Shown: one piece after another, positions 1-57,290 of the stretch | How positions within the stretch are numbered: position 1 is the first letter of the stretch | Layout of the letters: each line of letters starts with the position of its first letter | IMG/VR virus record: IMGVR_UViG_3300045988_079139 | Span: 4,378 to 68,377 of that record | Strand: one strand, 5' to 3' | DNA from: a virus | DNA: 64,000 nucleotides | Position numbers and translations under genes: made by a program | The notes under the pieces: model-generated | Told to the model about the DNA's origin: nothing | The model's input: only the letters and a program-made list of their open reading frames with translations | The model's database searches: none

Positions 1-72
1 AAAACCAGAAAGCCAGCCTGATAACTGGATGAAAAATATTCACTAACTAAAATTTTAAGGAGGATACTAACC

Positions 73-1011
73 ATGAAATTTGGTGTACGCGAAATTTGCG
101 ATGTCGTTCTGAAGGCGAAGGCAGCTCAAAAAGTAGGTAATAAATTATTCTACAAGAATGAGCCTGTAATTTATTTTGATACTCTAAAGAGCTCTAGCAT
201 GGAAGGTGCAGCAACTACTGTTTATGCACAGGGTGGTCGTGGTAACTCTCGTTTGATTGCTTGGGAAGGCGAGCGTACTATTACTTTCACCATGGAAGAT
301 GCTCTAATCTCTCCCGCTGGCTTCATGATCCTGTCTGGTGCAGGTTTGATTGAGGCTACTGAAGAGAAGTCCATTAAGGTTCATACTACTGAGCAGACTG
401 ACAAGGTTACTGTTGAGAGTGGCGATGTTAAGTACGGTGCAGAAGGATATGCTGATGCTATTACTTCTGTAACTATTGAGCTTGATGAAGTTCCTTATGA
501 TGACGTTGATGGCGATTACATTTATGTAATGCTATTGGAGAATGGCGAAGTTGTTACTGAGCCTTACATTCCTGAGTCCGTTGACCAGGAGAAGAAGACT
601 ATTACTCTAAAGACTTCTGATGATTTGGCTAAGTTCTATGATAACTGCGTTGTTTTGGTTGACTACTACACTGAGAAGAAGGCTGGCGCTCAGCAGATCG
701 AAATTACTCCCGATAAGTTCGGTGGTAACTACTATCTAGAGGCTTCTACTCTATTCCGTGATACAAATGGTGTTGACATGCCTGCAGAGTTCATTATTCC
801 TAACTGCAAGATTCAGTCTAACTTTACTTTCACCATGGCATCTTCTGGCGATCCATCTACTTTCACTTTCACTATGGACGCTTTCCCTGACTACACTCGT
901 TTCGACAAGACCAAGAAGGTTCTGGCCGCAATCCAGATTGTTGACGTAGCAGGTTCTAGCGACTTGGTTCGTGACATGACTGCTTCTAAGCAGCACAACA
1001 AGTTTGATTAA
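73..1011 (+). CDS. Major tail (tube) protein candidate (312 aa); abundant structural protein, TAG-free
   Basis: Uninterrupted ORF with an AGGAGG RBS at 56-62 and a TAATAA stop followed by a hairpin plus U-tract terminator. It lies directly upstream of the chaperone-like genes and the tape measure, which is the canonical MTP-G-TMP order. Codon usage (AAG, CAG, TTC, TAC, CTG) differs sharply from the neighbouring genes, as expected for a very highly expressed gene. It contains no TAG. Confidence 0.55.
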   Translation: MKFGVREICDVVLKAKAAQKVGNKLFYKNEPVIYFDTLKSSSMEGAATTVYAQGGRGNSRLIAWEGERTITFTMEDALISPAGFMILSGAGLIEATEEKSIKVHTTEQTDKVTVESGDVKYGAEGYADAITSVTIELDEVPYDDVDGDYIYVMLLENGEVVTEPYIPESVDQEKKTITLKTSDDLAKFYDNCVVLVDYYTEKKAGAQQIEITPDKFGGNYYLEASTLFRDTNGVDMPAEFIIPNCKIQSNFTFTMASSGDPSTFTFTMDAFPDYTRFDKTKKVLAAIQIVDVAGSSDLVRDMTASKQHNKFD

Positions 1012-1027
1012 TAAAACTTAATATTTT

Positions 1028-1068
1028 GGGGAGAGACTAATATAGTCTCTCCCCCTTTTTTTTATTTT
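1028..1068 (+). terminator. Rho-independent terminator after the major tail protein gene
   Basis: ggggagagacta-ata-tagtctctcccc hairpin followed by a T9 run. Confidence 0.8.
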
Positions 1069-1088
1069 GAGAGAAAGGAGATTCGTAA

Positions 1089-2297
1089 ATGATTGAAAAA
1101 AGTTATATTCAATACTTAGATTATAAACCGTCAGTTGCATATTCTTTTTTCGCGTAGCGTCAGAATGCTTTATTGTTGGCAAATACTAAATCTGCTTTTG
1201 ATAGCAATGAAGCGCGTCTAAATCAGATTATTAGTAATGCTCAATAGGGATTAAATAAATTAACTAATAATATTGTGACTGAAGAAAATTTAGCAAACGC
1301 AATCTCTAAAGGAATGGAAGCTAGTGCTGCTTTATCTGGAGACTTAGAAAAAATGGCAGGGTCAATAAGTGGATATTTTAGTGAAGCAAATTCAAAAGCA
1401 GCTCAATTAAGAAATTTGTATGAAACCGGATACACAGATTTTGAAAGCATTGTTAGTTCAGTTTTGAAAAGTGGTAGAGTTACAATCAATCATGGTGAAT
1501 TGACACAAATTTTAAGCAATCTTCATCCAGATTAGATTGAAACCGCTTTTAGAGATGTAGCTAACCCGCTTGGTTGGATAGGTGAATTAAGTGGTTTGCC
1601 TCTTTTATCTAATATCGCAGATTAGTTATTAGAAACTTCGTTTAAGGGTATGCCTGGAGTTACTGTGGAAATTGTAAATACTGGTGCTCTTTACACAGAC
1701 AAAGGTTCTCGTTTAACCACTGATAATTTATTAATATTTAGACAAGGAAATCAAGTTTTATATTAGTTAAATCTTTCTAATAAATTAAATACTGTTTATC
1801 AAGATAAATCTAAAAATACTAAACGTGCAATTAAATTAAGAACTACAACAGTAAATTCTTTTTTATCTGGCCATGAAGACTGGGCTGAGCACGTTTATAA
1901 TATTATTAGTTATCACTGGGACACTTCTAAAGATATGCGAGTAGATTATTTAACTGGAGAGGGTAATATCGCAAGACAGAGTTTGGGGTTATAGATTTTA
2001 TATGACCATATTTATGGCACTAAAGAAAACTTTTTAGTTGGTGATGATATATTTAAGGATGAAGTTCAGTTGATAGCTTATGGTACAAAAATTATTGCCA
2101 GCAATAGTGTATTAAGACACGCTTTATTTACTAAAGCCATGAATGATAAGAAAAAATTTACAATGATTACCATTGATAGAAAGTCTTGGTTTCATAATGA
2201 AGATGAATAGGGAAAGACCTATATTCAAAATGAATATGATGCTCAAAGAAGAATTGCTGCCTTTGGTTTGATTTATAAACAAACTTTACAAATTTGA
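1089..2297 (+). CDS. Hypothetical tail-module protein (402 aa), read through 7 in-frame TAG codons
   Basis: ATG at 1089 is preceded by gagagaaaggag. The frame stays open to TGA at 2295-2297 except for TAG codons at 1155, 1245, 1533, 1623, 1764, 1992 and 2208. The ORF track shows only the 1275-1535 fragment. Confidence 0.55.
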
Positions 2298-2322
2298 CAA
2301 ATCAGAAAATTTCTGGTATAAT
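2294..2322 (+). promoter_or_regulatory. Consensus sigma-A-type promoter (TTGACA-17 nt-TATAAT)
   Basis: TTGACA at 2294-2299, a 17-nt spacer and TATAAT at 2317-2322, placed 36 nt upstream of the ATG at 2358. Confidence 0.7.
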
Positions 2323-2357
2323 ATAAATATAAAATGAGATAAAGGAGGAATTTAGCT

Positions 2358-2897
2358 ATGGCTAAAGTACCATTTTCAAAATTGCAGGCTAAAGTTGATA
2401 GTAAAGTAACTCAAAATTGCTATTGTAATTTAGCTGGCGAAGAAGTACATTATGAGGTAAAGCATTACTTACCTTTTGTAGAAAAACTCGACCTAGTTTC
2501 TCGTATCATCAATAATTCTATTGATGATAATGGTTTTTACAATCCAATGCGAGTAAAAATGTATATGGTTCTTGAAGTAACTTTCGCATATACTAATCTA
2601 AGTTTCACTGAAAAAATGAAGGAAGACCCTTTTAAACTATACGACATTTTAGTAAGTACTAGTATTTTTACCGATATTGTAAATGCTATCTGTGAAAAAG
2701 ATTGGACTGAAATTCAAGCAGATGTCTGGTCTACAATTGATAATATTTACAATTATAGAAATTCCGTGATGGGAATTCTAGAAACTATTACTGCCGATTA
2801 TAGTAATTTAAATCTTGATGCCAGTGAAATCCAAAAGAAATTGGCTGATCCAGATAATATGGATTTTTTGCGAGATGTTTTAAGTAAATTGGGCTAA
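2358..2897 (+). CDS. Putative tail assembly chaperone (179 aa), independently transcribed and TAG-free
   Basis: AAAGGAGG RBS, its own consensus promoter upstream and a strong terminator downstream. The chaperone call rests only on its position between the major tail protein and the tape measure. Confidence 0.45.
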   Translation: MAKVPFSKLQAKVDSKVTQNCYCNLAGEEVHYEVKHYLPFVEKLDLVSRIINNSIDDNGFYNPMRVKMYMVLEVTFAYTNLSFTEKMKEDPFKLYDILVSTSIFTDIVNAICEKDWTEIQADVWSTIDNIYNYRNSVMGILETITADYSNLNLDASEIQKKLADPDNMDFLRDVLSKLG

Positions 2898-2943
2898 TTA
2901 AATTAGTTTATTTATTAAGACTTTTACATTTTAATAGGAATGG

Positions 2944-2990
2944 ACGGCGGCTGGATAAAAACATTCCAGCCGCCGTTATTTTTATTTTTG
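2944..2990 (+). terminator. Rho-independent terminator
   Basis: acggcggctgg / ccagccgccgt 11-bp stem followed by ttatttttatttttg. Confidence 0.8.
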
Positions 2991-3026
2991 CAAAAATAAA
3001 AAATTGGAGAGAAAGGAGTATTTTAA

Positions 3027-6000
3027 GTGGCAAAACAATTAAATGTTAATTTAGCATTTAATGCTGATACTAGCAAGGTAAAAGCGTAGTTGTAGGAATT
3101 ATAGAATCATTTAAATAATTTAACTAACACAACAGCGGCTTAGTTGCCTATTACTAAAGAGGTCCAAGAGGCTCAATAGGCAACTATTCATTTGAAAACT
3201 GCCTTGCAGCAAGCAGTAAATGTAAATACTGGTAAATTTGACCTATCTAAGTTCAATTAGTCCATTAAGACTTCTGGAACTTCTCTAGAGCAAATTCGAA
3301 ATCGTTTGGTTCAAATTGGGCCTAGTGGATAGTAGGCTTTTGCATCGTTGGCACAATCAATTGCTTCAGCAGAAATCCCTGCTCGTAGAACCAGTGCTTT
3401 ATTAAGTGAGCTAGGAACCACTTTAAAAAATACTGTTAAATGGCAATTTTCTTCTAGTATGTTGCATGGTTTTATGGGCGCAGTTCAAAGTGCTTATGGA
3501 TATGCTCAAGATTTAAATAAATCTTTAAATGATATTCGAATTGTAACTGGATTGAGTGCTGATGAGATGGATAAATTTGCTATTAAGGCTAATAAGGCAG
3601 CAAAAGCTTTGAGCGCATCTACATTAGAATATACTAATGCAGCATTAATTTATTATCAACAGGGTTTAGATTCTAAGGCTGTTGAGGAACGAACAAATGT
3701 AACAATTAAAATGGCAAATGTTACTGGAGAAGTCGCTTCTGACGTATCTAATTATATGACAGCAGTCTGGAATAATTTTGCCAAAGGCGGCGAAACATTA
3801 GAGTATTATGCTGATGTTATGACTGCTTTAGGTGCTGCTACAGCTTCAAGTACAGATGAAATTGCAGCTGGATTGGAGAAATTCGCTTCTGTCGCAGATA
3901 CAGTAGGATTAAGCTATGAATATGCAACTGCTGCATTGGCAACTGTTACTGCCACAACTCGTCAAAGTGCTGATGTTGTAGGTACTGCTTTTAAAACCTT
4001 ATTTGCACGTATCCAAGATTTGGAGCTAGGAGAAACTTTAGATGATGGTACCACTCTTGGCAGTTATTCATAGGCTTTGCAAAAAGTTGGTATTAATATT
4101 AAAGATACTTCCGGTCAATTGAAAGATATGGATATTATCCTAGAAGAAATGGCTGCTAAATGGGAAACTCTTGGAAAAGCCGAGAGAACTGCCTTAGCGC
4201 AATCTGTTGCTGGTGTTCGTCAATATACTCAATTGATTGCTTTAATGGATAATTGGGATTTTATGGAATCCAACCTTGGAGTTGCGAATTCTGCTGAAGG
4301 TACTCTTCAAGAACAAGCAGATATTTATGCTGAAAGCTGGGAAGGTGCTCGAGATAGAGTAAAAGCCGCCGCTGAAGCAATTTATAGTGATTTGCTAAAT
4401 GATGATTTCTTTATCGATTTAACAAACGGTTTAGAAAAAGTATTGACATTATTTGACCATTTCTTAGATGCTATTGGAGGAGCTAAAGGTTTAATCTTTG
4501 GTTTATCTAGTATTTTATTAAATACTTTTAGCGCTTAGGCGGCTAAAGGTTTAGAAAATATGGTTTATAATTTAAAGAGCTTTGTAGGTTTAACGCAAAA
4601 AGAAGCCATTGCAACAAAAGCAGAAGCAAATCGATTAATGGCAGAAAAAGTGCCATCTGCAGGCCCTAGTGTTTTAAACACTTTCACTTCTGATGCTAGC
4701 ACAACAGGAATGTAGACATAGTTTGAATTGACGTCTCAAGTTGCTATGTTGAAAGAAAAGATGACAGAGCATCAACAAATGGAAGCACAAGCTATTTTAA
4801 GTTAGAACAAAGCTTATGCTGATTAGTTAGTGGTGTTGGGACAAAAGGCTGATGCTTTAAAAAGTGAGAAAGAAAGCGCCAGATCAAATTTATTAGATGA
4901 CGCTGCTTTTGAGTTGGGTACCGTTCGTGCTCAAGAAGCTTTGTCTCAAATTGATGCAGATATTATGAATGGCGAAAGCATTGTAGCTGAAATTGAATAG
5001 GTTGAACAGGCTTTTAAAAAAGGAACTGTAACTCTTGAAGATTATAAAGCTAAAATGGGAGAGCTAGGAAAGAAAGCTAAATCTTAGGGCTTAGAAGAAA
5101 CTGCAAGTATTATTGCGAAAGTTTCTGGCCGTACTGCAAGTGGAAAACCTCAAGATTTAGATATGGCAGGAATGGCTCGTACTGCCGCAACGAAAGATAC
5201 TCGCAAGCGAGCTAGAAAAGCTTTAACAGATAAGGGAGCAAAAAGTCCTGCTGTTGATGATAAAACAATTGATAAATATATCACAAAAACAAAAGAAGCT
5301 GCAAAAGCAGATAAAAAATTTGCTGATGGTAAAAAAGAGTTAGAGAGAAATACTGCTGAATCATCTAAAGCAATTAAGAATTTAACTAATACAACACAGC
5401 AAGTTTCACAAACCATTGTTAAGACTGCTTAGGCTACAATGTCTTTAGCTTATGGTATTAATGCTTTAAGTCAGCTAGGTGATATTTGGTCTGATGATAC
5501 GCTTTCTGGCGGACAAAAGTTCTTACAAACATTAATGTCTCTTGGTACAGCTATTCCAATGTTAATGAATGGTTTAACAGGAATGAATGCAGTATTAGGA
5601 GTTACTAGTGTTTTAGAACAAAAAGCAGCTATTGCATCTCAACTATATCTTGCGGCTCATAGTAAAAAGTTAGCTGTATTAACAGCAGAGCAACAAGCAG
5701 AATTAGCTGCAAATATGTCTAAAGCAACGGGCTTAACTTTAGATTAGGCAAAAGTTCAAGTAAGCAATGCAGTCGCTGCAGCTAAATTACAAGAGGCGGC
5801 CGCCTCTGGAGCGCTAACTGCTGCATCTACCGCAGAACAAATTGCTGGGCTAGCAGGAATTTCTATGGACTAGGCTGAAATCATTTCTAAAAAGCTTGCT
5901 GCAGGTGCAACAATAGAAGAGGCTATGGCTGAGGCTGGATTGACAGCTACTAAAACTGGCGGTATTGCTGCATCAGTAATGCAAATTTATACCAAAGGTT

Positions 6001-9000
6001 TAGAAAGTGGTGCACGATGGGCTAATGTAGTGGCAATGATTGCAGAGCAAACTGCGATGTCTCCACTGCTGATTATGACATTGCTTTTAGTTGCTGCAAT
6101 GGCAGCATTAGCTGCAGTAATAGCAATTGTAGTTACAGCTGTCAACGCAATTGTAAGCGCGTATAATGCTGATTCAATAGCAGCTGAAAAAGCAGAAGCA
6201 GCAGCAAAAGAATTGGCAAAAGCATATAATGAAGCAAAAGCCAGTTATGAAGAAATGGTTGCTGCGATGGAAGAATATCAAAGCGCACGAGATGCTTTGG
6301 ATTCTTTAACAAAAGGAACTGAAGAATATTCTCAAGCTTTAAAAGAAGCTAACCGTCAAGCTTTAGATTTAATTAATACATATGATAAATATTTAACTTC
6401 TGATGATTATAAATGGGATAATGGTCAATTGGTTATTGATGATGCTGCTTTAGAAAGAGCTAAGCAAATGGCAAGTCAAGATCTTGATACTGCATATGCA
6501 GCAAGCTCTATGGGCGCAGCCAATGCCAAAGAAATGCGAGCCGTATCTGATCAAACTAATTTAAAACGTAGTTATTACGATGGTAATATTGGTACCGCAG
6601 CACTTCAAGCAATGGGAAGTTCACTTGCTTCAACATTAATCCCAGGACTTGGCACTCTATTGGCCCCCGTACTAGCGACTGCTTCGCTTGCAACGTATGC
6701 AGCAAAGCAAGGTGAGGAATAGGCTTATGGCAAGGGCGTTGACGCTGCCATGAAGTTATATCGAGAAGGCAATAAGAATATTTTTGATTCTTAGGAAAAT
6801 TTATCAACCGCTTTAAGCGAAGTCGGTATTACCAACACTGATTTAATTACAGCATTGTGGGAAAATAAAGACGCTTTGCAAGAGCTGGGTAGCAAATTTG
6901 ATGCGGCTGAAATGGCTGGAAGAGCTGCTGCTCAAGAAAATGCTCGTGCCTTTATCGAAAATTCTTCTTATAGCAATTCAAAATATGCTGATGAAATGAC
7001 TCATATGGTTGGCAATAAGTATTATGAGCGTCAACAAGAAGTGGAAGCTCAGATGTCTGAATTGGTAAAAACCAAGGGTGGATTAAAAGCAGCTGCTAAT
7101 TCTTATTTCGCTAATAGTGGCATTGCTGATCAGTCAGGATTTAAAGTTGAAAAATACGATAAGAAAAATGGCGTTGTAAAATATAGCTACATTGGTGAAG
7201 ATGGAAAACGAGAAGAAAAAGAGGTAACAGCAGAATTTATTGCATAGATGGAAGCTGCTACCAAAGTGCAATCTGAATTAACAGAAAGTTGTAAAATTGT
7301 TAGCGATTCTTTTAGTGCTTTAGATGGACAGCTTGGTTCAACTAATGAAGCGTTAAATGAAGGCATGAAAGCCTTTTTAACAACTGGTGATATTAGTAAT
7401 TTAACTAAAGATTAGTATGATGAAATCGCCAATTTATCTGATGAAGATTTATTAAAATATTTAAATAATATCGGAATTAATGAAGATACTGTAAAGTCTT
7501 TTGGATATGATAATATGTCAGATTTTACAGATAGTATGAATGTTGATGGAGTAGGAGAGACTTGGGACAAGTACCAAAATATTACTGCCCATCAAGGAAC
7601 AGAAGATTTAACATTAAATCAAGCAGAGAATATTAGTAATGCTCTGGAGGGTATTGCAGAGTTCTTCGGTGAAGAAGTCGGACATGAGATGCTAGATTTA
7701 TCTGCGTTAATGGCTGATTCTTTAGATGAAGCCGCTCAAGACGATTTCTGGGAGCAACTGGGTAATATCTCTGATTATACCGATGCTGATCAATGGGATG
7801 CATTCTTAGAAGCCATGAAAGATTCTGAAGATATGACAGATGAATAGATTCAAGCTTTAGAAGAATATGTTGATACAGCTAAATTGGCAGCAAAAGCAAC
7901 TAAAGATTTAGATTTTGATGCTATGGCTGAAAGCGTAAAGAGTTTACGCGATATTATGCAAAGTATTTCTGATGGAAATAGAGAGATTACTGATGAAGAA
8001 TTTGCTGCTCTTGAAGCTCAAGGAATTGACACTTCTAAATTTGCAAAAACCATTGATGGTTATCGTTATCTTGGTGATAGTGCAGATTTAGTTGCAGATA
8101 TCTCTGAAGGTATTACTAAGCAATTTAAAGAAGCAGAAATGAATTTCTCTAATATCGCTGCAACTGCTGCTCAAGCTAGTTAGAATTTAATTGATGCTGA
8201 AGCTGCACTTGATGCTGCTCGTATAGCTGGCGATCAAGCAAGAGCATCTGCAGAAGCTGGCGCTACTAATCAATTAACTAATACTGAGAAATTAAGTGTT
8301 ATCATGTCACAAATTGTAAACAATGTTGTATCAAAGATTAAGGCAGCATGGGAATGGATTTGTGGAATCATGATGGATATTTATGATTTCTTTGCTAATA
8401 TTTTTAATAAAATTGGATAGGGTATTACTGATATTTGGAATGGCTTCTTAGAAATTATTGAAAATATTATTAATGGCGTAGTTGGAAAAGTTGTCGAACT
8501 ATTAGAAGAAATTCCTGGTGTTGATATTGATTGGGAAGATATTTCATTTGAAAAAGCTAATTTTGAAGGTGTAAAAACAACAGAAGAAATTGAAGCGGAA
8601 GAAAATGCTAGAAAAGCAGAAGAAGATTTAATAGCTTCTACTCAAGCATTGGCTGATGCTATACCTGATATGGTAGCTAGTATTGAATCTAGTGCTGATT
8701 ATCTTTCTGAAGCAGAACTTGAAGCTGGTCGTGTTGAAGCAGAATAGAATTATAATACTGCGCAATCTCAATATGATGCAGCTGTTGCAACATATGGTAA
8801 AGATTCTACTCAAGCTAAATATTATGAACAATTAGTGGCATATTATGAAGCTCAAATGGACGCTTATGCTAAGGCTTTGGATTCAAAAGCTTGGGGCGAG
8901 GTAATTGCAGAGGGCATTGATACCAAAGAGATGGAAGCTTATATTGATCTTCTGGAGCAAGCGCATCCAGAAATGCGTAAATTATATGAAACTACAGAAG

Positions 9001-12000
9001 ATTATGAAAATGCATTGCTGCAAGTCGCTACTGCCAATAAAAAAATGGAAAAGGGTGTTAAATCCTTAGCTTCTAACTGGGACAAATGGAATGATATTAT
9101 GGGTGATAGCGAAGCTTCAGCTTCAGATATTGCTACAATTTTACCAGAGGTTAATGATGCCGTACAAGATGTTTTAAATCTTGATACTAGTGAGTTCGCC
9201 ATGTTACCTCCTGATTTTGCTCGAAAGCATTGGGATTTAATTCAAGACGTTGTTAAGGGCGTAGAAGGATCTGTAGATAAATTGCGTAATGTAGCAGGCC
9301 AAGAAATTTTAATGCAAATTGATGGCGTGCTAGATGCCGATGGAAATCTTGACGCTCAATTTATGGCCTTACATGAAAAAATTGCTCAATACGATCAATC
9401 TCAATTTACTGTTGGAGTTGCTATTGATCCACAAGCAAATGCAGATTTTATTGCAGCTTGTAATGATATTATTCAAAAAGCTGGTATGACTGCAGAATAG
9501 GCTTAGGCTTATTTCGCATCCATGGGTTACGATATCAAGTTAAAGCCTGTTAAGCAAAAGATTACTGAAACACAATGGAATCACATTTATAAAAATGTTT
9601 ATGACGCCAAAGGAAATCTGTCTGGTAGAGTAATTTAGAAAGCTTGGCCTTCTACATTTACTGGTGAAGTTGATGCTTTGGCCATTGAGACTATTACTCC
9701 AAATGGCTCTTATGGTGGTGGTATTGGAGTAGAGACAACTCCTCCAAAATCTTCTACATCTGCCGCTGATTCATCAGGCGGTAATAATGATGAGCCAGAA
9801 GCAGCAGAAGAAGAAGAAGTTTCTAAAAAGTCTGATATTGTCGATAGATATCATACAGTTAATCGACAATTGGAGGATATGACTAAGGCGATGGAAAAAG
9901 CTTCCAAAGCCGCAGATAAATTATGGAGTCGTAAAAGATTACAGTATTTAAAAGATTAGAATGAATTATTAGATCAAGAAATAGGGTTACTGGAAACAAA
10001 GAAGCAAGAAGCAGAAGACTATCTTCGAGATGAAGATATTCCTAATTTAACTTAGGCTATGGCAGATGCCGGCTTTAATGCTACTTTTGATGATAATGGT
10101 GAAATTACAAATTATAGAAGCGTTATGGACACTTTGGCAGATTAGCTAATTGCCGCGCAAAATCAGCGTAATACGCTAGCTACAAAAGACGATCAAGATG
10201 CTTATACTAAAACTGTTATTGAACCTTTAGAGAAAAAGATTGAAGAATTGCAGGCTGCAATTGAAATGTATGAAGCAACATTAGATACTATTGAAGAAGT
10301 AGATACTGAAATTCAAGATCGAGTAGACCAGAAACTTGCTAATAATTATGAAGCTTGGAGCTTAGAGCTTGAATTAGACATTGCAATCAATGAAAGAGAT
10401 TTGGAATTATTAGATTATTACTTATCTAAAATTGAAGACGATGTTTATTCTATGGCTGAAGCCGCAGCTTATATGATTGGTTCTTTAGAAGGACTAGCTT
10501 CTGGAGAATTCGGTGGTCAATTAGGCATATACTTAAACAGCTTATCAACTTATAGTTCAGCCCTAGATGATTTAAATACAAAATTAGCTGCTGGAGAAAT
10601 TACTGAAGCAGCCTATGAAGAAGGTCTAGAAGAAATTCGTTCTGGTTTAATGGATAATTTATCTTCATTAAATGAATTGGACGATGCCATGTTAAATTAT
10701 TATGGTGATACTCTATCTATGGTTACAGAAGAAATTGATAAATATACTGAAAAAATGGAACATCAATCTTCTGTTCTGGAACACTATAGTAATATGATGG
10801 AAATCTTAGGTAAGTCTCAAGATTATGAATCAATGGGTACTATTTTGCAAGGTCAAGCTGATGTATTAGCAGACCAAGTTGATGTTGCAAAAGCTGAATA
10901 TGATTTATATGCACAAGAAGCTGCTAATAAGCGTAAATTATATGAAGATGCTATTGCGGCTGGTGACCAGGCAGCAGCAGAAGTCTACAAGAAAGAATGG
11001 GAAGCTGCTGATGAAGCCGCCATGGAAGCTCAATCTAATATGCTAGATAAGACTGAAGAGTGGGCAGAATCCATGAAGTCAGTTGTTGAAAATAAGTTGG
11101 CAGGTTTAGCGCAATCCTTGGAAAGTGCTTTAACGGGTGGAACTTCATTCGATGAATTAACCACTTCTTTGGAGCGTGCGGCAAGCTTACAAGAAGAATA
11201 TCTAACTACTACAAATTAGATTTATGAAACTAATAAATTAATGCGTACTGCACAGCAAGAAATTGATAAAACTACAAATACTGTTGCAAAATAGCGTTTG
11301 AAAGATTTTATTAAAGAAACTGACCAGTTGCAAGATAAGTCTAAATTAAGTCAATATGAGTTAGAAATTCAACAAGCTAAATATGATTTGCTTCTGGCTG
11401 AAATCGCTTTAGAAGAGGCTTAGAGTGCTAAATCTACTGTCCGTTTGCAGCGTGACGCTGAAGGTAATTTCGGTTATGTATATACTGCAGACCAAGACCA
11501 ATTAGCTAATGCTCAGCAAGAATTAGAGAATGCTCAAAATAGTCTATATAATATTGGTTTAGAGGGCGCCAATGAGTACACTGAAAAATACTCTCAAACC
11601 ATGCAAGAAATGTATGATACATTAACCTCAATCCAAGAGGCTTGGTTGAATGGTGAAATTGCTACTCAAGAAGAATATGATAGACAAATGTTGGCGGCTC
11701 AAGAATATTATTATCAGTAGTTAGAAGATTATTCTAGCTTATATAGTGTTGCCATTTCCACAGACAGTCGCGTTGTAAAAGATGCTTGGAGCACTGGTTT
11801 TAACTCAATGATGAGTAAAACCAACGAATGGAAAGACAAAGTCAATCAATATAGCGCCGAAGCTCGTGAGACTTTAGTCAATTGGTATGCTAAGGTTGAT
11901 GAAATCGCTAATAAGACTGGTTTAGATAATATTGCTTCTAAGGTAAAGGCCGTTACTGACGAATCTAAGGCTTTGAAAGATGCTGTTATTGGCGAAGATG

Positions 12001-12836
12001 GTAAGGGCGGAGTTGTTCAAGCTCTTAAAGATGAATTGACTGCAGTAAGCAATTTAACTGGTGGTTATGCATCTTTGCGTGGCACCATTTAGGGATTAAT
12101 TGCAGACTATGAAGCATTAATGGATACTGTTAATAATGCTTAGAATCAGCAAACTTCAATTAATCAAACAACTGAAAATGGTGACGGAGGCAGTAATGGT
12201 GGAGACACTGGAGGTAACACAGGCGGTGATACCGGAGGTAATAATACTGGAGGTAACACTGGTGGAAATACCGGAGGTAATAATACTGGAGGTAACGTTA
12301 CTCCAACATTGGCCGAGGGTCAAGATGTTACTGTTAAAGCTACTGCTACTCACTTCTCACGAGATGGCGGTAATGGAACTCGTATGAGATCCTTCGTACC
12401 TGGCTCTACTTATTCAGTAATGTAGATTCAGGGTGAAGAAGTTCTAATTGGACGCAATGGCACTGCCACAGGATGGGTAAGAAAAACTGACCTAGTTGGT
12501 TTTAATACTGGTGGTTACACTGGAGAATGGGGTCCATATGGTAAATTAGCCATTTTGGATGAAAAGGAATTGGTGTTAAATAAGAATGATACAGCTAATT
12601 TCTTAGCTAGTATGGAATTATTAGAACATATTCTAGAGATAATTGATTTGTAGGCCGCAAGCGCTCAGCTTGGTGGTATATTAAGTAGTCCTGGATATGC
12701 AGATACACCAACTGAAACAATTGAACAAAATGTTCATATTGAAGCATCATTCCCCGCAGTTCAAGATAGAAATGAGATTGAAGAAGCATTTAATACTCTT
12801 ATTAATAGGGCTTCTCAATATGCTAATCGAAAATAA
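3027..12836 (+). CDS. Tail tape measure protein, 3,269 aa, read through about 41 in-frame TAG codons
   Basis: GTG start 7 nt after AAAGGAG. A single frame runs open from 3027 to TAA at 12834-12836 and is broken only by TAG. Every gap between ORF-track fragments (3348, 4077, 5163, 5439, 5925, 6855, 7515, 7884, 8835, 9678, 10248, 11445, 11808...) was checked codon by codon. The protein is Ala/Gln-rich coiled coil. It has classic TMP N-terminal-domain sequence (AQSIASAEIP...GLSYEYATAALATVTATTRQSADVVGTAFKTLFARIQD) and a hydrophobic segment near 8330-8410, as TMPs typically do. Confidence 0.8.
12185..12300 (+). repeat. Intragenic tandem repeat of about 15-18 nt encoding GG(D/N)TGGNTGG... (Gly/Thr/Asn-rich) within the TMP C-terminal region
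   Basis: Repeated ggaggtaa(c/t)a(c/a)tgg(t/c)gg(a/t)(g/a)a(t/c)acc units. This explains the spurious ORFs on both strands at 12136-12387. Confidence 0.7.
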
Positions 12837-50146: not shown

Positions 50147-50166
50147 GAGAAAGGAGCTGAAATTAA

Positions 50167-53100
50167 ATGGCACAACTAAATGATTTACTGGTATTGGGTA
50201 AATCTAATTTATTGGGCGATACTAGTATTTTTGGAGCCTTTAATATTAATGGTAATGTTGCTATCGACGGCACTTTAACTGTTGAAGATGCTACTTCATT
50301 AAAGAGTTCCTTGACAGTTGCTGGATCTTCTACGATTGGCGGAGCCACCACAATTGGTGGAGCTACTACAATTGGTGGCGTCTTAACCGCGTAGGATAAT
50401 ATTAAAGTTTCAAGTAATAAAACAATTATTCAAGCTCAAAGTTCTGGTAGTAACTACACTACAGTTATTAGATGGGATTGGGCGGATAAAGGTTCATTTA
50501 GCTACTATCCGCAAATTGGTCATCATAGTAATGGAGACACTACTGGCGCTATTGTTTTATTGCCATATGCCACTAATGCCAAGCCCTGGGATGCAAATGA
50601 TGGTTTATATATATCTGCGTCTAGATTAAGATGGAATAATTTAATTGCGGCTGATAATAGTAGAAATTTTTATCCTACTCAAAATGGCACTGGTTCCATT
50701 GGTACTTCAAGCTACTATTGGAATAATGGTTATTTAAATAACTTAACTATTAAAACAGCTTTAACTTTAAATGGAACAACATATTTAAATGGTAACTTAG
50801 TTTGGAAGCCAAGTGTTAATATTACTTGTACACCAACTGCTGCGAATCAAGAATTCTCAATTGACGTTGGTAGCAGTTCTTTTACAGGGTCTTATTTCCA
50901 TATTTGGTCTGCAGTTAAATCTACTTCGATTTTAAGTTGTTATCCAGATGATTTATCTGTGAAGATGGGCGGCGCTGTCACTATCGCAGGAGCCATCACA
51001 GCTAATAGTACAGCTTTAATTAAAGGCTCAACTGAAATTCAAAATAATGTTAAAATTACTAATGGTAACTTAACTATTCATAGAGACTCAACAAAGGCTG
51101 CAAATACACCAGCTAAAATTATTTTTTCTAACAAACAAACCGATGGTAATATTACAACAAATTCTGCCTGTATTGCTGCTTATGATGATCATGATGCCTC
51201 AAGTTATGGTCAAAATTTAGTTATTTAGGGTTGTTCTAATGTTGTTGTAGGTGCAGGTGAAAGTGCTACCAGTTTTTATGAAGCAGTTTTAAAAGATAGT
51301 TCATCAGAAGGTTTATATCTAACTTCTGATGGTAGTATTTATTTCTATCCTAAATGTGACACTGTTGCTAATAGAGTTGGAGTAATTCTTGATACTTCAA
51401 GACAGTTTTATCCCGACTCAAATAACACTGGTTCTTTAGGTGTAAGTTCTTACCGCTGGGCAAATGCATACATTGGTAATTTAAATGCTTCAGGAACTGG
51501 TACAATTTCTGGCAATACTTCTATTGGAGGCACATTAAGTGTAAGTAGCACTTTAACAGTTGGTAGTACCACATTATTAAAAAATACCTTAACTGTTCAA
51601 GGCAATATTTATATTAATCAAACTGCAGGTACAGGTACTGGCCTAGCTTTGTACGGAACAAGTGCACCTGCAACATATGGAGTTTATTTTGCTCAAACTG
51701 CTAATTTTAGTAAGCATGGCGACGTTCAAGGAGATTGGGCAACTTACTTTGGAATGAATGCCGTTGGTACAAGAGGTTGGATTTTCCGTCCTGGTACAAC
51801 AAATGTGGCAAGTATTTCCGCAAATGGTGTAGCATCTTTTTCTGCTATCGGTGATGGTGTTGCTTATTTAGCATTCCCCAAGGGCGGCACTCTAACTATT
51901 GGCTCTAGTGGCCAAAAAGGATATTTAACTATTGTAATGCCAGCAGGATTTAACTCCACAATGGTTAAATTCAAGGTATCTGTTTATAATTATTCAACCG
52001 GCACTTCTGTTGACTATATTATCGGAGGTTATTGTTATTCTTCTGATAATAAATGGTATAATCCAACTGCATATTGTATTGGTCCTAGAGGTAGCGGATT
52101 AGCAAACTTAACTGTTAATTACGGTATGTCTGGAAGTAATCCAGCAATTCAGATTGGTGCGGCAGACACAACTTGGGAATATCCAAATATCGCAATTTCT
52201 GATGTTTATTTAGGTCATAGCCGTAATTATTCTAATTGGTCTAAGTCATGGACCGTAAGTATTACCACAACTGCTATTACTTCTATCACACAAACTATAT
52301 CCAATACTTATATGGCCAACTTTAGCGGTACAAATAATAAAGTTGCTAAATTCTCTAATAGTGGTCTTAATATTACTAATAGTAATATTACTGATGATGG
52401 CTCCACTGTTACTATTGGTTCTAAACTTGTTGTTTAGGGTAATGGTAGTTCATATAATGAAGGTATTCGTATTTTACCAGCTTCAAATGGTTGGTCAAAT
52501 ATCTTCTTCTCCGCTGACTCCAGCGTTTAGGGAACTCATGATGGTGGATGGCTGATCGGACGACGCGGTGCCGTAGGTTCAACCGCAGGAGCTATTGGTG
52601 ACTTCACTATTGAAGAACAAGATTCTTCTGGCGTTAACCTCACTATTCACAAAGATGGTAATGGCGCAACGTTAATGGGTAGTTTACGCATTAATAAACC
52701 GATCATTTATAGCACAGAAGCTTCCGGTACTCGTATTCTGTATGGATCTACTCGTAATTCAGGTATGAAATATGACTATAGTGGCAATGAAAGTTTCATG
52801 ATTTCTGCTGGTACTTATGCATCTGCATCAATTCTACTATTGACCGGTGGACAATTAAATATGAATGATAGTAATGGTCAATGGAATGCTAGTACAACTG
52901 TTCCAGCAATGTCTCTGCGTAAGTCAGGTGTTGCAGTTAATTATAACTTAACTTCTGACCCAACTCATAATTTTTATGTTAAGGGTACTTCAAAATTTGA
53001 TGGTGTTGTTTTTGGTTATAATTATATTAATTCAAGTAACGCTGCAGCTTTTATGTGGGACAAGAATGGAACTAACTACACAGGCGTTGGTTCTTGTGGC

Positions 53101-54189
53101 GTAGCTGATACAATTCTTTTTGCTCCTTGTAGCGCAGACGGAGCTTGGGTAAGTAGTTATGAACAGATTTGGAGATTCCAAGGATCTATTGAATTCCCTC
53201 AAAACTCTGCTCGCGTAAGAGGAAATACTGCTACTGATTATACTCCTGTTTACATAAGTGGTGAGAAAAACACTTATGGCGGTATCGCTTTTTAGAATGG
53301 ATTGCATGTCATGTCTAGTGCAGATCACCATGGTTTTTGGGACGGTACATGGATCCTTTATCGAAACACTTCTCATGGAGCTATTAGTATTGGTACCGCT
53401 CAAACCACTGCTAACGGATATGCAATTACTCTTGCGGGAAGTACTTATATTAATGGTAATACATCCATTAATGGAACTTTAACTATGAGCAACGCTATTC
53501 AACTACAAGTTGATGGTGGTAACTGGTATAATCCTATTAAGAATTTAACACATAGTGGACTATATTATGATGCGTCAAGTTCTAATACTTCTACCTACTG
53601 GAGTTTAATTGCTTTAAAATTCCCTAACCAAACTTACTCTTTAGGTGGCGAGCGCTCCGGAAATACCTTCGGTATTTATAGTTACAATAACAGTAGAACA
53701 GATAACGGATACGATGGAGCTCTTTACGTTCATGGTGGCAACCACTACTTCTATTGTACTACTAGACTATATGGCGCTGTATGGAATGACTATGCGGAAT
53801 TCCGTACTCAAGAGCAAGAAGTAGCCCCAGGCTATTGTGTCGCTTCTAGAGATAATGGCAAAATTCATAAAACCCATAAGAGACTATAGGCTTGTGACGG
53901 TATTGTCTCTGATACTTATGGTTTCTCCATTGGTGAAAATGAAGAAAATAAAACGCCTCTTGCTGTTGCAGGTCGTGTACTTGCATACTGCGAAGGAGAT
54001 AAAAACGATTATCGTGCTGGTGATACTGTTTGCGCAAGCGAAAATGGTAAAGTCTGCAAGATGACTCGTGAAGAAATTCAAATGTGGCCTGACCGAATTG
54101 TTGGTACAGTTTCTGAAATTCCTGATTATGAAATTTGGGGAACTGGAAAGGTTAAAGTTAATGGTCGTATTTGGATTAAAGTAAAATAA
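50167..54189 (+). CDS. Tail fibre B (1,340 aa, about 8 TAG), paralogous to fibre A at the N-terminus and at an internal segment
   Basis: RBS gagagaaaggag. The N-terminus is MAQLNDLLVLGKSNLLG. The 50560, 51649, 52675 and 53302 fragments are co-frame. The segment DGSIYFYPKCDTVANRVGVILDTSRQFYPDSNNTGSLG matches fibre A. A TAG at 53887 precedes the last 100 aa, and the gene ends at TAA 54187. Confidence 0.65.
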
Positions 54190-56754: not shown

Positions 56755-57225
56755 TTAAACAAGTGGGTCATTCTCAGTCTTTAATGGTAAAGCAACTGCT
56801 TTATTATAAAATGCTTCAGCTTGACCATTACCACCTAAACCTTTGTATAGCTTATAGAATTCGATTAATTGTTCCAGTTGTCCTTCAGTAATGTATCCTT
56901 GATGTAAAAAACCTTTACATAACTGAATTAGACGGAAACGATAGGACGCAACAATTAAGTTCATATGAGATTTTTCCATATTTTCATTATCACGGCAGTA
57001 TTTTCTTAAATCTTCTAATTCTTGAAATACTGGTTCTAATTCAATATCAATCTTATTCTCAATCTTTTCATCCAATTTCTATTCTGCTAAGGTGGCAGCA
57101 TTTTTCTCAGCTGTTTCTTTCTCTCTCATAATTTGAGAATTTTTCCATTTTGCATAGCCAATAACAGCAGCGCTAATTAGACCGAACAAAATTTCTGTTC
57201 CCCACTCTGCTAAAAGAGCTTCCAT
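56755..57225 (-). CDS. Membrane-anchored hypothetical protein (156 aa, 1 TAG between the TM segment and the soluble domain)
   Basis: The ATG at 57225 (minus strand) has GGGGG upstream. The N-terminus MEALLAEWGTEILFGLISAAVIGYAKW is a TM helix. An in-frame TAG at 57076-57078 joins it to the ORF-track fragment 56755-57075, whose start is TTG. Confidence 0.45.
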
Positions 57226-57290
57226 AAGAAAATCATCCCCCTTTCAACTTCTCTACTGATGTTAAGAAAAGTGAAAGAGGGATTAATAAG

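Follow-up and report, generated by a model that had tools for sequence, protein, structure and literature searches.

A 64,000-nucleotide stretch of viral DNA (IMG/VR record IMGVR_UViG_3300045988_079139, positions 4,378 to 68,377; the whole stretch is hereafter the window) carries a 1,340-codon tail-fibre gene whose last in-frame TAG, at 53887, is very probably an ordinary glutamine codon (Gln1241) of a phage using genetic code 15, situated within the G2-like chaperone domain in which the fibre ends and having no role specific to its position. In the phage of origin, TAG is read as glutamine, chiefly within structural genes. An initial annotation had singled out this TAG as the last one in frame in the 1,340-amino-acid fibre, and the frame and the flanking peptides that it quoted were confirmed. 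It had further proposed that the codon marks a hinge, at which termination or read-through regulates the production of tip-less and tipped fibres; that proposal fared less well. The sequence at 53881-53892 reads AGA CTA TAG GCT, the flanks are ...KIHKTHKRL * ACDGIVSDTYGFSIGE..., and 99 codons follow before the TAA at 54187-54189. The residues directly before the TAG, GYCVASRDNGKIHKT, already belong to the C-terminal domain. With glutamine at this codon, the predicted read-through peptide is ...KRL-Q-ACDGIVSDTYGF..., and its tryptic form after KR would be L-Q-ACDGIVSDTYGFSIGENEENK. The gene, its six TAGs, and the domain lie as follows.

50167..54189, plus strand: tail-fibre gene, from ATG at 50167 to TAA at 54187-54189, 1,340 codons with TAG as sense (from open reading frame structure).
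50392..50394, plus strand: in-frame TAG 1 of 6, codon 76.
51226..51228, plus strand: in-frame TAG 2 of 6, codon 354.
52435..52437, plus strand: in-frame TAG 3 of 6, codon 757.
52528..52530, plus strand: in-frame TAG 4 of 6, codon 788.
53293..53295, plus strand: in-frame TAG 5 of 6, codon 1043.
53887..53889, plus strand: in-frame TAG 6 of 6, codon 1241, read as Gln, inside the chaperone domain.
53782..53802, plus strand: predicted autocleavage motif W1206-N-D-Y-A-E-F1212, with the cut predicted between N1207 (53785-53787) and D1208 (53788-53790).
53788..54186, plus strand: putative intramolecular chaperone domain of the phi29 gp12 / Peptidase_G2 type, residues 1208-1340 (133 amino acids), predicted to be released once the trimer has assembled.

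When TAG is taken as sense, the summed length of the open reading frames of at least 100 amino acids in the window rises from 18,465 to 26,780 amino acids, and genes of 3,269, 2,229, 2,092, and 1,340 codons appear. About 115 in-frame TAGs are distributed over some 20 genes, mostly plus-strand structural (tail and fibre) genes; on the minus strand, the genes encoding NrdD, dUTPase, RuvC, and a fragment of a polymerase have none. With so many in-frame TAGs in so many genes, a TAG near some C-terminus is unremarkable; by our own arithmetic, the chance that at least one of the six TAGs of the fibre falls within the last 100 of its 1,340 codons is about 37%.

The amino acid inserted at this codon can be read from homologues. 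The last 200 residues of the fibre, used as a query, retrieved 714 homologues, the best 120 of which were aligned with the query; among these, the column of TAG 53887 holds Gln in 100, Glu in 7, Ser in 6, Ala in 5, and Cys in 1. The closest relative (P0001, locus L092; 93% identical) and the next (P0002, locus L093; 77% identical) carry CAG and CAA, respectively, at the orthologous position. Elsewhere in the window, the gene at 1089-2297 has six TAGs in common with a 96%-identical relative, and the four positions that differ all exchange TAG and CAG. Indeed, five of five TAG exchanges with close relatives are with CAG or CAA, and none is with a Ser, Leu, or Tyr codon. When 73 distinct IMG/VR sequences of the domain were aligned at codon level, the TAG columns proved to be enriched in Gln above any other residue (11-fold). 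Taken together, the Gln column, the CAG and CAA codons of the relatives, the exchanges between TAG and CAG, and this enrichment indicate that the codon at 53887 encodes Gln1241. Proteomics has confirmed the reading of TAG as Gln in other phages (PMC9523058).

The codon had been placed between a beta-rich shaft and a compact domain of roughly 100 residues, a position that the alignment contradicts. Across the 120 homologues, conservation sets in abruptly at Y1202-G-A-V-W-N-D-Y-A-E-F, 39 codons upstream of the TAG, and runs unbroken across the TAG column to the last residue, while the sequence upstream of Y1202 is unrelated between homologues. The module thus comprises about 139 residues rather than about 100, with the TAG 39 codons inside it, or 33 residues inside when counted from the junction of N1207 and D1208. 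Homologues begin the domain with the consensus Y-G-A-[VA]-W-N-D-Y-A-E-[YF]-R, in which the N, D, Y, A, and E of the motif are kept in 118-119 of the 121 aligned sequences (Asp and Glu in 119 of 121). For a search of 1.84 billion representative proteins, and for the structure model described below, the P0001 domain was used; 3 of its 143 residues differ from those of the window. The search found the domain in 2,772 clusters at 50% identity, and in all 150 of the 150 best representative matches the domain ends no more than one residue from the C-terminus of the protein, whatever its length (189-2,728 amino acids). The window itself holds a single copy. Some phage genomes contain two or three different fibre genes, all ending in this same domain (L014, L027, and L057, all on contig IMGVR_UViG_3300029305_005185; also L042, L061, L068, and L069), an arrangement that suggests module shuffling among the several fibres of one phage.

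Judged from its sequence and modelled fold, the module is a compact, divergent relative of the G2-type (Asp/Glu) intramolecular chaperone of phi29 gp12, and not of the S74 (Ser-Lys) type. A profile of the domain matched residues 687-742 of the phi29 gp12 pre-neck appendage protein (E 3.7e-4), aligning G-A-V-W-N-D-Y-A-E-F of the window with G-N-T-W-S-D-F-A-E-Y of phi29. The phi29 cleavage site is S691|D692 ... E695. The crystallised C-terminal fragment of gp12 (3gqh) starts at the Asp that aligns with D1208, and in the uncleaved, 'pre-mature' form (3suc) a Gln replaces the Glu that aligns with E1211. Comparison by hhalign with a Peptidase_G2 alignment, built from domains of Bacillus, Staphylococcus, Clostridium, and Cobetia phages, gave an E value of 3.7e-5 and a probability of 71%, the match being convincing in the first 56 or so residues; two members of this alignment that were scanned match PF11962 at 1e-82 and 3e-50. 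Linked by profile-profile comparison but falling below the Pfam model PF11962, the domain appears to be a remote relative lying outside the curated family. An AlphaFold2 model of the P0001 domain is confident, compact, and beta-rich, with a predicted local distance difference test (pLDDT) score of 91.6 and a predicted template modelling score of 0.85, and its fold corresponds to that of the C-terminal fragment of gp12. The TAG-encoded Gln is residue 44 of this model, in a loop that runs from strand 36-38 to strand 48-50 (mean pLDDT of the block, 97), and follows 3 of the 11 secondary-structure elements. Thus, the earlier suggestion of a C-terminal intramolecular chaperone stands as regards the type of module, given the match to phi29 gp12, although not as an optional tip attached at a TAG hinge; the S74 family that had been proposed as its test gave no match, and the test for a Ser-Lys dyad is not applicable to a module of the Asp/Glu type.

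Several points weigh against the combined reading of TAG as glutamine and of the module as a G2-like chaperone. No match to Pfam Peptidase_G2 was obtained, even at E <= 1, with the whole fibre, its last 200 amino acids, or its last 99 amino acids. The confident alignment with gp12 is limited to the first 56 or so residues, and the hhalign probability stops at 71%. The domain has 133 amino acids versus about 163 in phi29, and its self-cleavage and chaperone activity are predictions made wholly from homology. Furthermore, a suppressor tRNA(CUA) was not found in the 64-kb window plus 4.4 kb upstream, which together are part of the genome.

The domain might instead be retained on the fibre as its distal tip, in the manner of the C-terminal domain of the P22 tailspike or of a decoration-protein-like knob. 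Its score below the Pfam Peptidase_G2 threshold would suit such a role, and there is precedent in the auto-chaperone domain of P22, which is kept in the mature protein (PMC3357383). Nevertheless, we consider retention unlikely: the near-invariant N-D-Y-A-E aligns residue by residue with the S/D-F-A-E of phi29, the aligned motif includes the very Glu that is swapped for Gln in 3suc, and the occurrence of an identical module on unrelated upstream tips is more readily explained by a folding device than by a tip that binds receptors.

The preferred reading, in which a G2-like domain is released from the fibre, would proceed as follows by analogy with phi29. Three copies of the domain would gather three chains in register, enabling the fibre to fold; the domain would then cut itself between N1207 and D1208 by means of the invariant Asp1208 and Glu1211, and the fibre of the mature virion would end at N1207. 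Were the cut made there, the TAG-encoded residue would be absent from the mature fibre. In phi29, trimers need the C-terminal domain to fold, after which it is removed by cleavage (PMC3357383, PMC4690869). As for timing, TAG 53887, like the other TAGs of the window, would block the complete product for as long as the cell reads TAG as stop; in TAG-recoded phages, the recoding of structural and lysis genes has been proposed as a form of late-gene control (bioRxiv 10.1101/2021.08.26.457843).

A second alternative is that TAG is a sense codon for an amino acid other than Gln, such as Ser. Ser does occupy the TAG column in 6 of the 120 homologues, and some related phages have suppressor tRNAs whose variable arm is long, as in class II tRNAs; their tRNA(CUA) genes, 89-95 nt in length, adjoin the fibre genes in L027, L041, and L053. 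These long-arm tRNAs, however, come from other phages and not from this window. Their 1:72 pair is mismatched, and they have G2:C71 and discriminator G73, a combination that resembles the identity elements of Escherichia coli tRNA-Gln. With the column 83% Gln and all five exchanges between close relatives being with CAG or CAA, a different amino acid is very unlikely. The tRNA genes with anticodon CTA in these related recoded phages lie at L027:5982-6072, L041:7717-7805, and L053:10161-10255 (minus strand). Structured RNAs were seen close to two of them: a full-length ROOL RNA (RF03087, 330 bits) at L027:6270-6890, 200 nt 3' of the suppressor tRNA on a 181-kb viral contig, and a cow-rumen-4 RNA motif (RF02948, 60.7 bits) at L041:7267-7332, about 400 nt 5' of the suppressor tRNA.

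Where TAGs fall in homologues bears on the remaining alternatives. Across the 73 distinct sequences, TAGs are spread over more than 20 columns of the domain, rather than gathering at a hinge as the initial annotation had anticipated. Column 1241, the most conserved Gln column, has TAG in nine sequences, that of the window included. Among the 43 clearly recoded sequences used for this ratio, TAG:Gln is 9:16 at column 1241 versus 28:70 elsewhere (odds ratio 1.4, Fisher p = 0.47), so that the column shows no excess. TAG thus recurs at column 1241 as often as recoded genomes should show it at a conserved Gln. Enrichment of TAG in a domain that is to be discarded was also considered and was ruled out, TAG accounting for 30% of Gln-equivalent codons there and for 36% in the upstream fibre (p = 0.23).

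These proportions also bear on the idea that read-through of the last TAG, which lies in a module needed for folding and discarded later, serves as a final licensing step, with fibres becoming assembly-competent only once the code switch of the cell is complete. For this, the use of TAG at 9 of 25 Gln-equivalent codons of column 1241 among recoded homologues would have to reflect selection over drift. Both comparisons (p = 0.47 and p = 0.23) match the background, and we regard a licensing role as highly improbable.

The idea of a regulated stop at a hinge is that termination yields tip-less and read-through yields tipped fibres as two functional forms. In its favour, suppression of stop codons is seldom complete. 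The C-terminal part is indeed a separable module of the chaperone type, and TAG is found at column 1241 in eight other distinct homologous sequences, a recurrence that fits the conservation of Gln (p = 0.47). Yet 33 residues of the module and 3 of its 11 structural elements precede the TAG, and the shorter product would carry a 33-residue stub of a broken folding domain rather than being a finished tip-less fibre; phi29 and K1F chains without their C-terminal domain aggregate (PMC3357383). The stop is not conserved either, being CAG or CAA in close relatives. Because five upstream TAGs must be read through before this one is reached, it is not separately controllable; moreover, cleavage of the module, should it occur, would leave the same mature fibre from either form, and no tipped form would exist in the virion. 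Production of two forms is therefore extremely unlikely. The parallel that had been drawn with a minus-strand membrane protein, whose TAG was said to sit at 57076 on the junction between the transmembrane helix and the soluble domain, does not hold: this TAG is at 57079-57081, about 22 residues past the helix. The protein, encoded at 56755-57243, contains one in-frame TAG, in the charged stretch AATLAE-Q-KLDEKIEN.

That the TAG is a true stop, with the fibre ending at L1240 and the downstream 99 codons being a separate gene or an untranslated remnant, can be virtually dismissed: standard-code gene callers do split the gene here (P0067, 192 amino acids and 100% identical, covers only the TAG-upstream half of the query), but the first in-frame ATG is 58 codons downstream at 54061, conservation is continuous over the TAG and homologues encode the domain uninterrupted, a terminator follows the TAA at 54187 and none follows the TAG, and about 115 in-frame TAGs lie within otherwise coherent genes of the window. 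An internal start just after the TAG was likewise rejected, as no in-frame start precedes ATG 54061. The terminator and two further elements of the gene are located as follows.

50151..50156, plus strand: Shine-Dalgarno-like AAGGAG, 10 nt 5' of ATG 50167 (by sequence inspection).
53617..53769, plus strand: residues 1151-1201, likely the distal end of the mature fibre, weakly resembling the C-terminal part of tail fibre protein S from phage Mu.
54194..54232, plus strand: intrinsic terminator, a hairpin with a 13-bp stem followed by a T run, directly 3' of the fibre TAA; no comparable hairpin was found after TAG 53887.

The likeness to the Mu fibre joins residues 1151-1201, which are variable among homologues, to residues 380-428 of PDB entry 5yvq (E 0.0018, phmmer against PDB). 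Neither the whole fibre nor its C-terminal pieces gave a useful match in Pfam, PHROGs, or NCBIfam, and megablast and tblastn found no match to the fibre in deposited phage genomes; for a neighbouring structural protein, the sole match was in Faecalibacterium phage FP_Brigit (35% identity). In the closest relative (L092:3-2116), the C-terminal 234 residues of the fibre are called as a separate open reading frame after a TAA/TGA at about 1316, which is likely a sequencing error, the coverage of that contig being merely 2.6x. The domain contains two invariant or near-invariant cysteines, C1224 (53836-53838) and C1243 (53893-53895), the latter two residues after the TAG-encoded Gln, and C1276, C1291, and C1298 are frequent; phi29-type G2 domains lack all five, and a disulfide or a metal site is possible.

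Among known systems, the closest counterparts to the recoding are the code-15 gut phages (crAss-like, Lak, Garnet, Amethyst, and phAss-type), whose pattern of TAG recoding has been described (bioRxiv 10.1101/2021.08.26.457843, PMC9523058, PMC10607447). The phage studied here has the same load of TAG in structural genes with few or none in genes for replication and nucleotide metabolism, the same alignment of TAG with Gln and exchange with CAG between close relatives, and relatives that carry tRNA(CUA) genes. It differs from them in not being close to any deposited genome and in that a suppressor tRNA was not found within the 64-kb window. Unlike that of crAss-like phages, its tail module is SPbeta-like, comprising the YomU tube, YomV, YomW, YomO, YonB, and YonD families together with a giant tape-measure protein; the gene calls for these families were read from two matching sequences, a contig identical at 100% and a relative identical at 92%. 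Programmed read-through of stop codons, by contrast, yields two isoforms, as with the A1 protein of Q-beta. The likeness consists of an in-frame stop followed by a translated C-terminal extension, whereas the codon studied here is reassigned genome-wide, is one of six in its gene, is replaced by CAG or CAA in relatives, and interrupts a domain.

For the domain, the nearest system is phi29 gp12 (3gqh, 3suc; PF11962; MEROPS G2). Both domains occupy the extreme C-terminal end of a fibre or spike, and they have in common W-[SN]-D-[FY]-A-E at the domain start and, downstream, the strands G-Y-x-V and G-[IV]-[IV]-S-[DE]-T-x-G-F. The domain described here is shorter (133 versus about 163 amino acids), its second half is not alignable by sequence, and its invariant C1224 and C1243 are absent from phi29-type G2 domains; it also falls below the Pfam model, and its cleavage is predicted. 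Peptidase_S74 domains (K1F endosialidase, T5 pb1, and the GA-1 appendage, with a Ser-Lys dyad) have the same C-terminal role in trimerisation and folding and are likewise released by self-cleavage (PMC4690869). A chaperone of this kind was rejected for the present fibre: there was no sequence match, and no S74 chaperone structure was among the fold matches. The S74 body is elongated and of different architecture, while that of phi29 is compact and beta-stranded (PMC4690869).

Elsewhere in the window, a 3,269-codon open reading frame at 3027-12836 contains 41 in-frame TAGs, eight of them within its first 100 or so codons (3087-3333). It likely encodes the tape-measure protein, to judge from PF10145 in the homologous gene of L089. 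This L089 is a 204-kb contig that is 92% identical over the opening 2.8 kb of the window, a segment holding the tube gene, the 402-amino-acid gene at 1089-2297, and part of the next gene. A 53.9-kb ENA contig (ERZ27229684 k119_127491; L090) matches the first 11 kb of the window (1-11011) at 100% identity, and the two matching contigs show that the phage recurs across samples. An Rfam scan of the window returned nothing at gathering thresholds.

Both the recoding and this type of chaperone are known biology; the spread of a compact family outside Pfam is mildly new. Gene calling with the standard code cuts the fibre into seven pieces, with one cut falling in the middle of the folding domain, where it can pass for the edge of a module or for a switch between isoforms. 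Metagenomic phage fibres often carry this compact G2-like chaperone, which the Pfam Peptidase_G2 model nonetheless misses, and a profile of its own would aid annotation. If the fibre is indeed cleaved at the N1207/D1208 junction, the variable region at about residues 1100-1207 would form the receptor-binding end of the mature fibre and the conserved last 133 residues would be absent from the virion, which would matter for host-range prediction and for fibre engineering.
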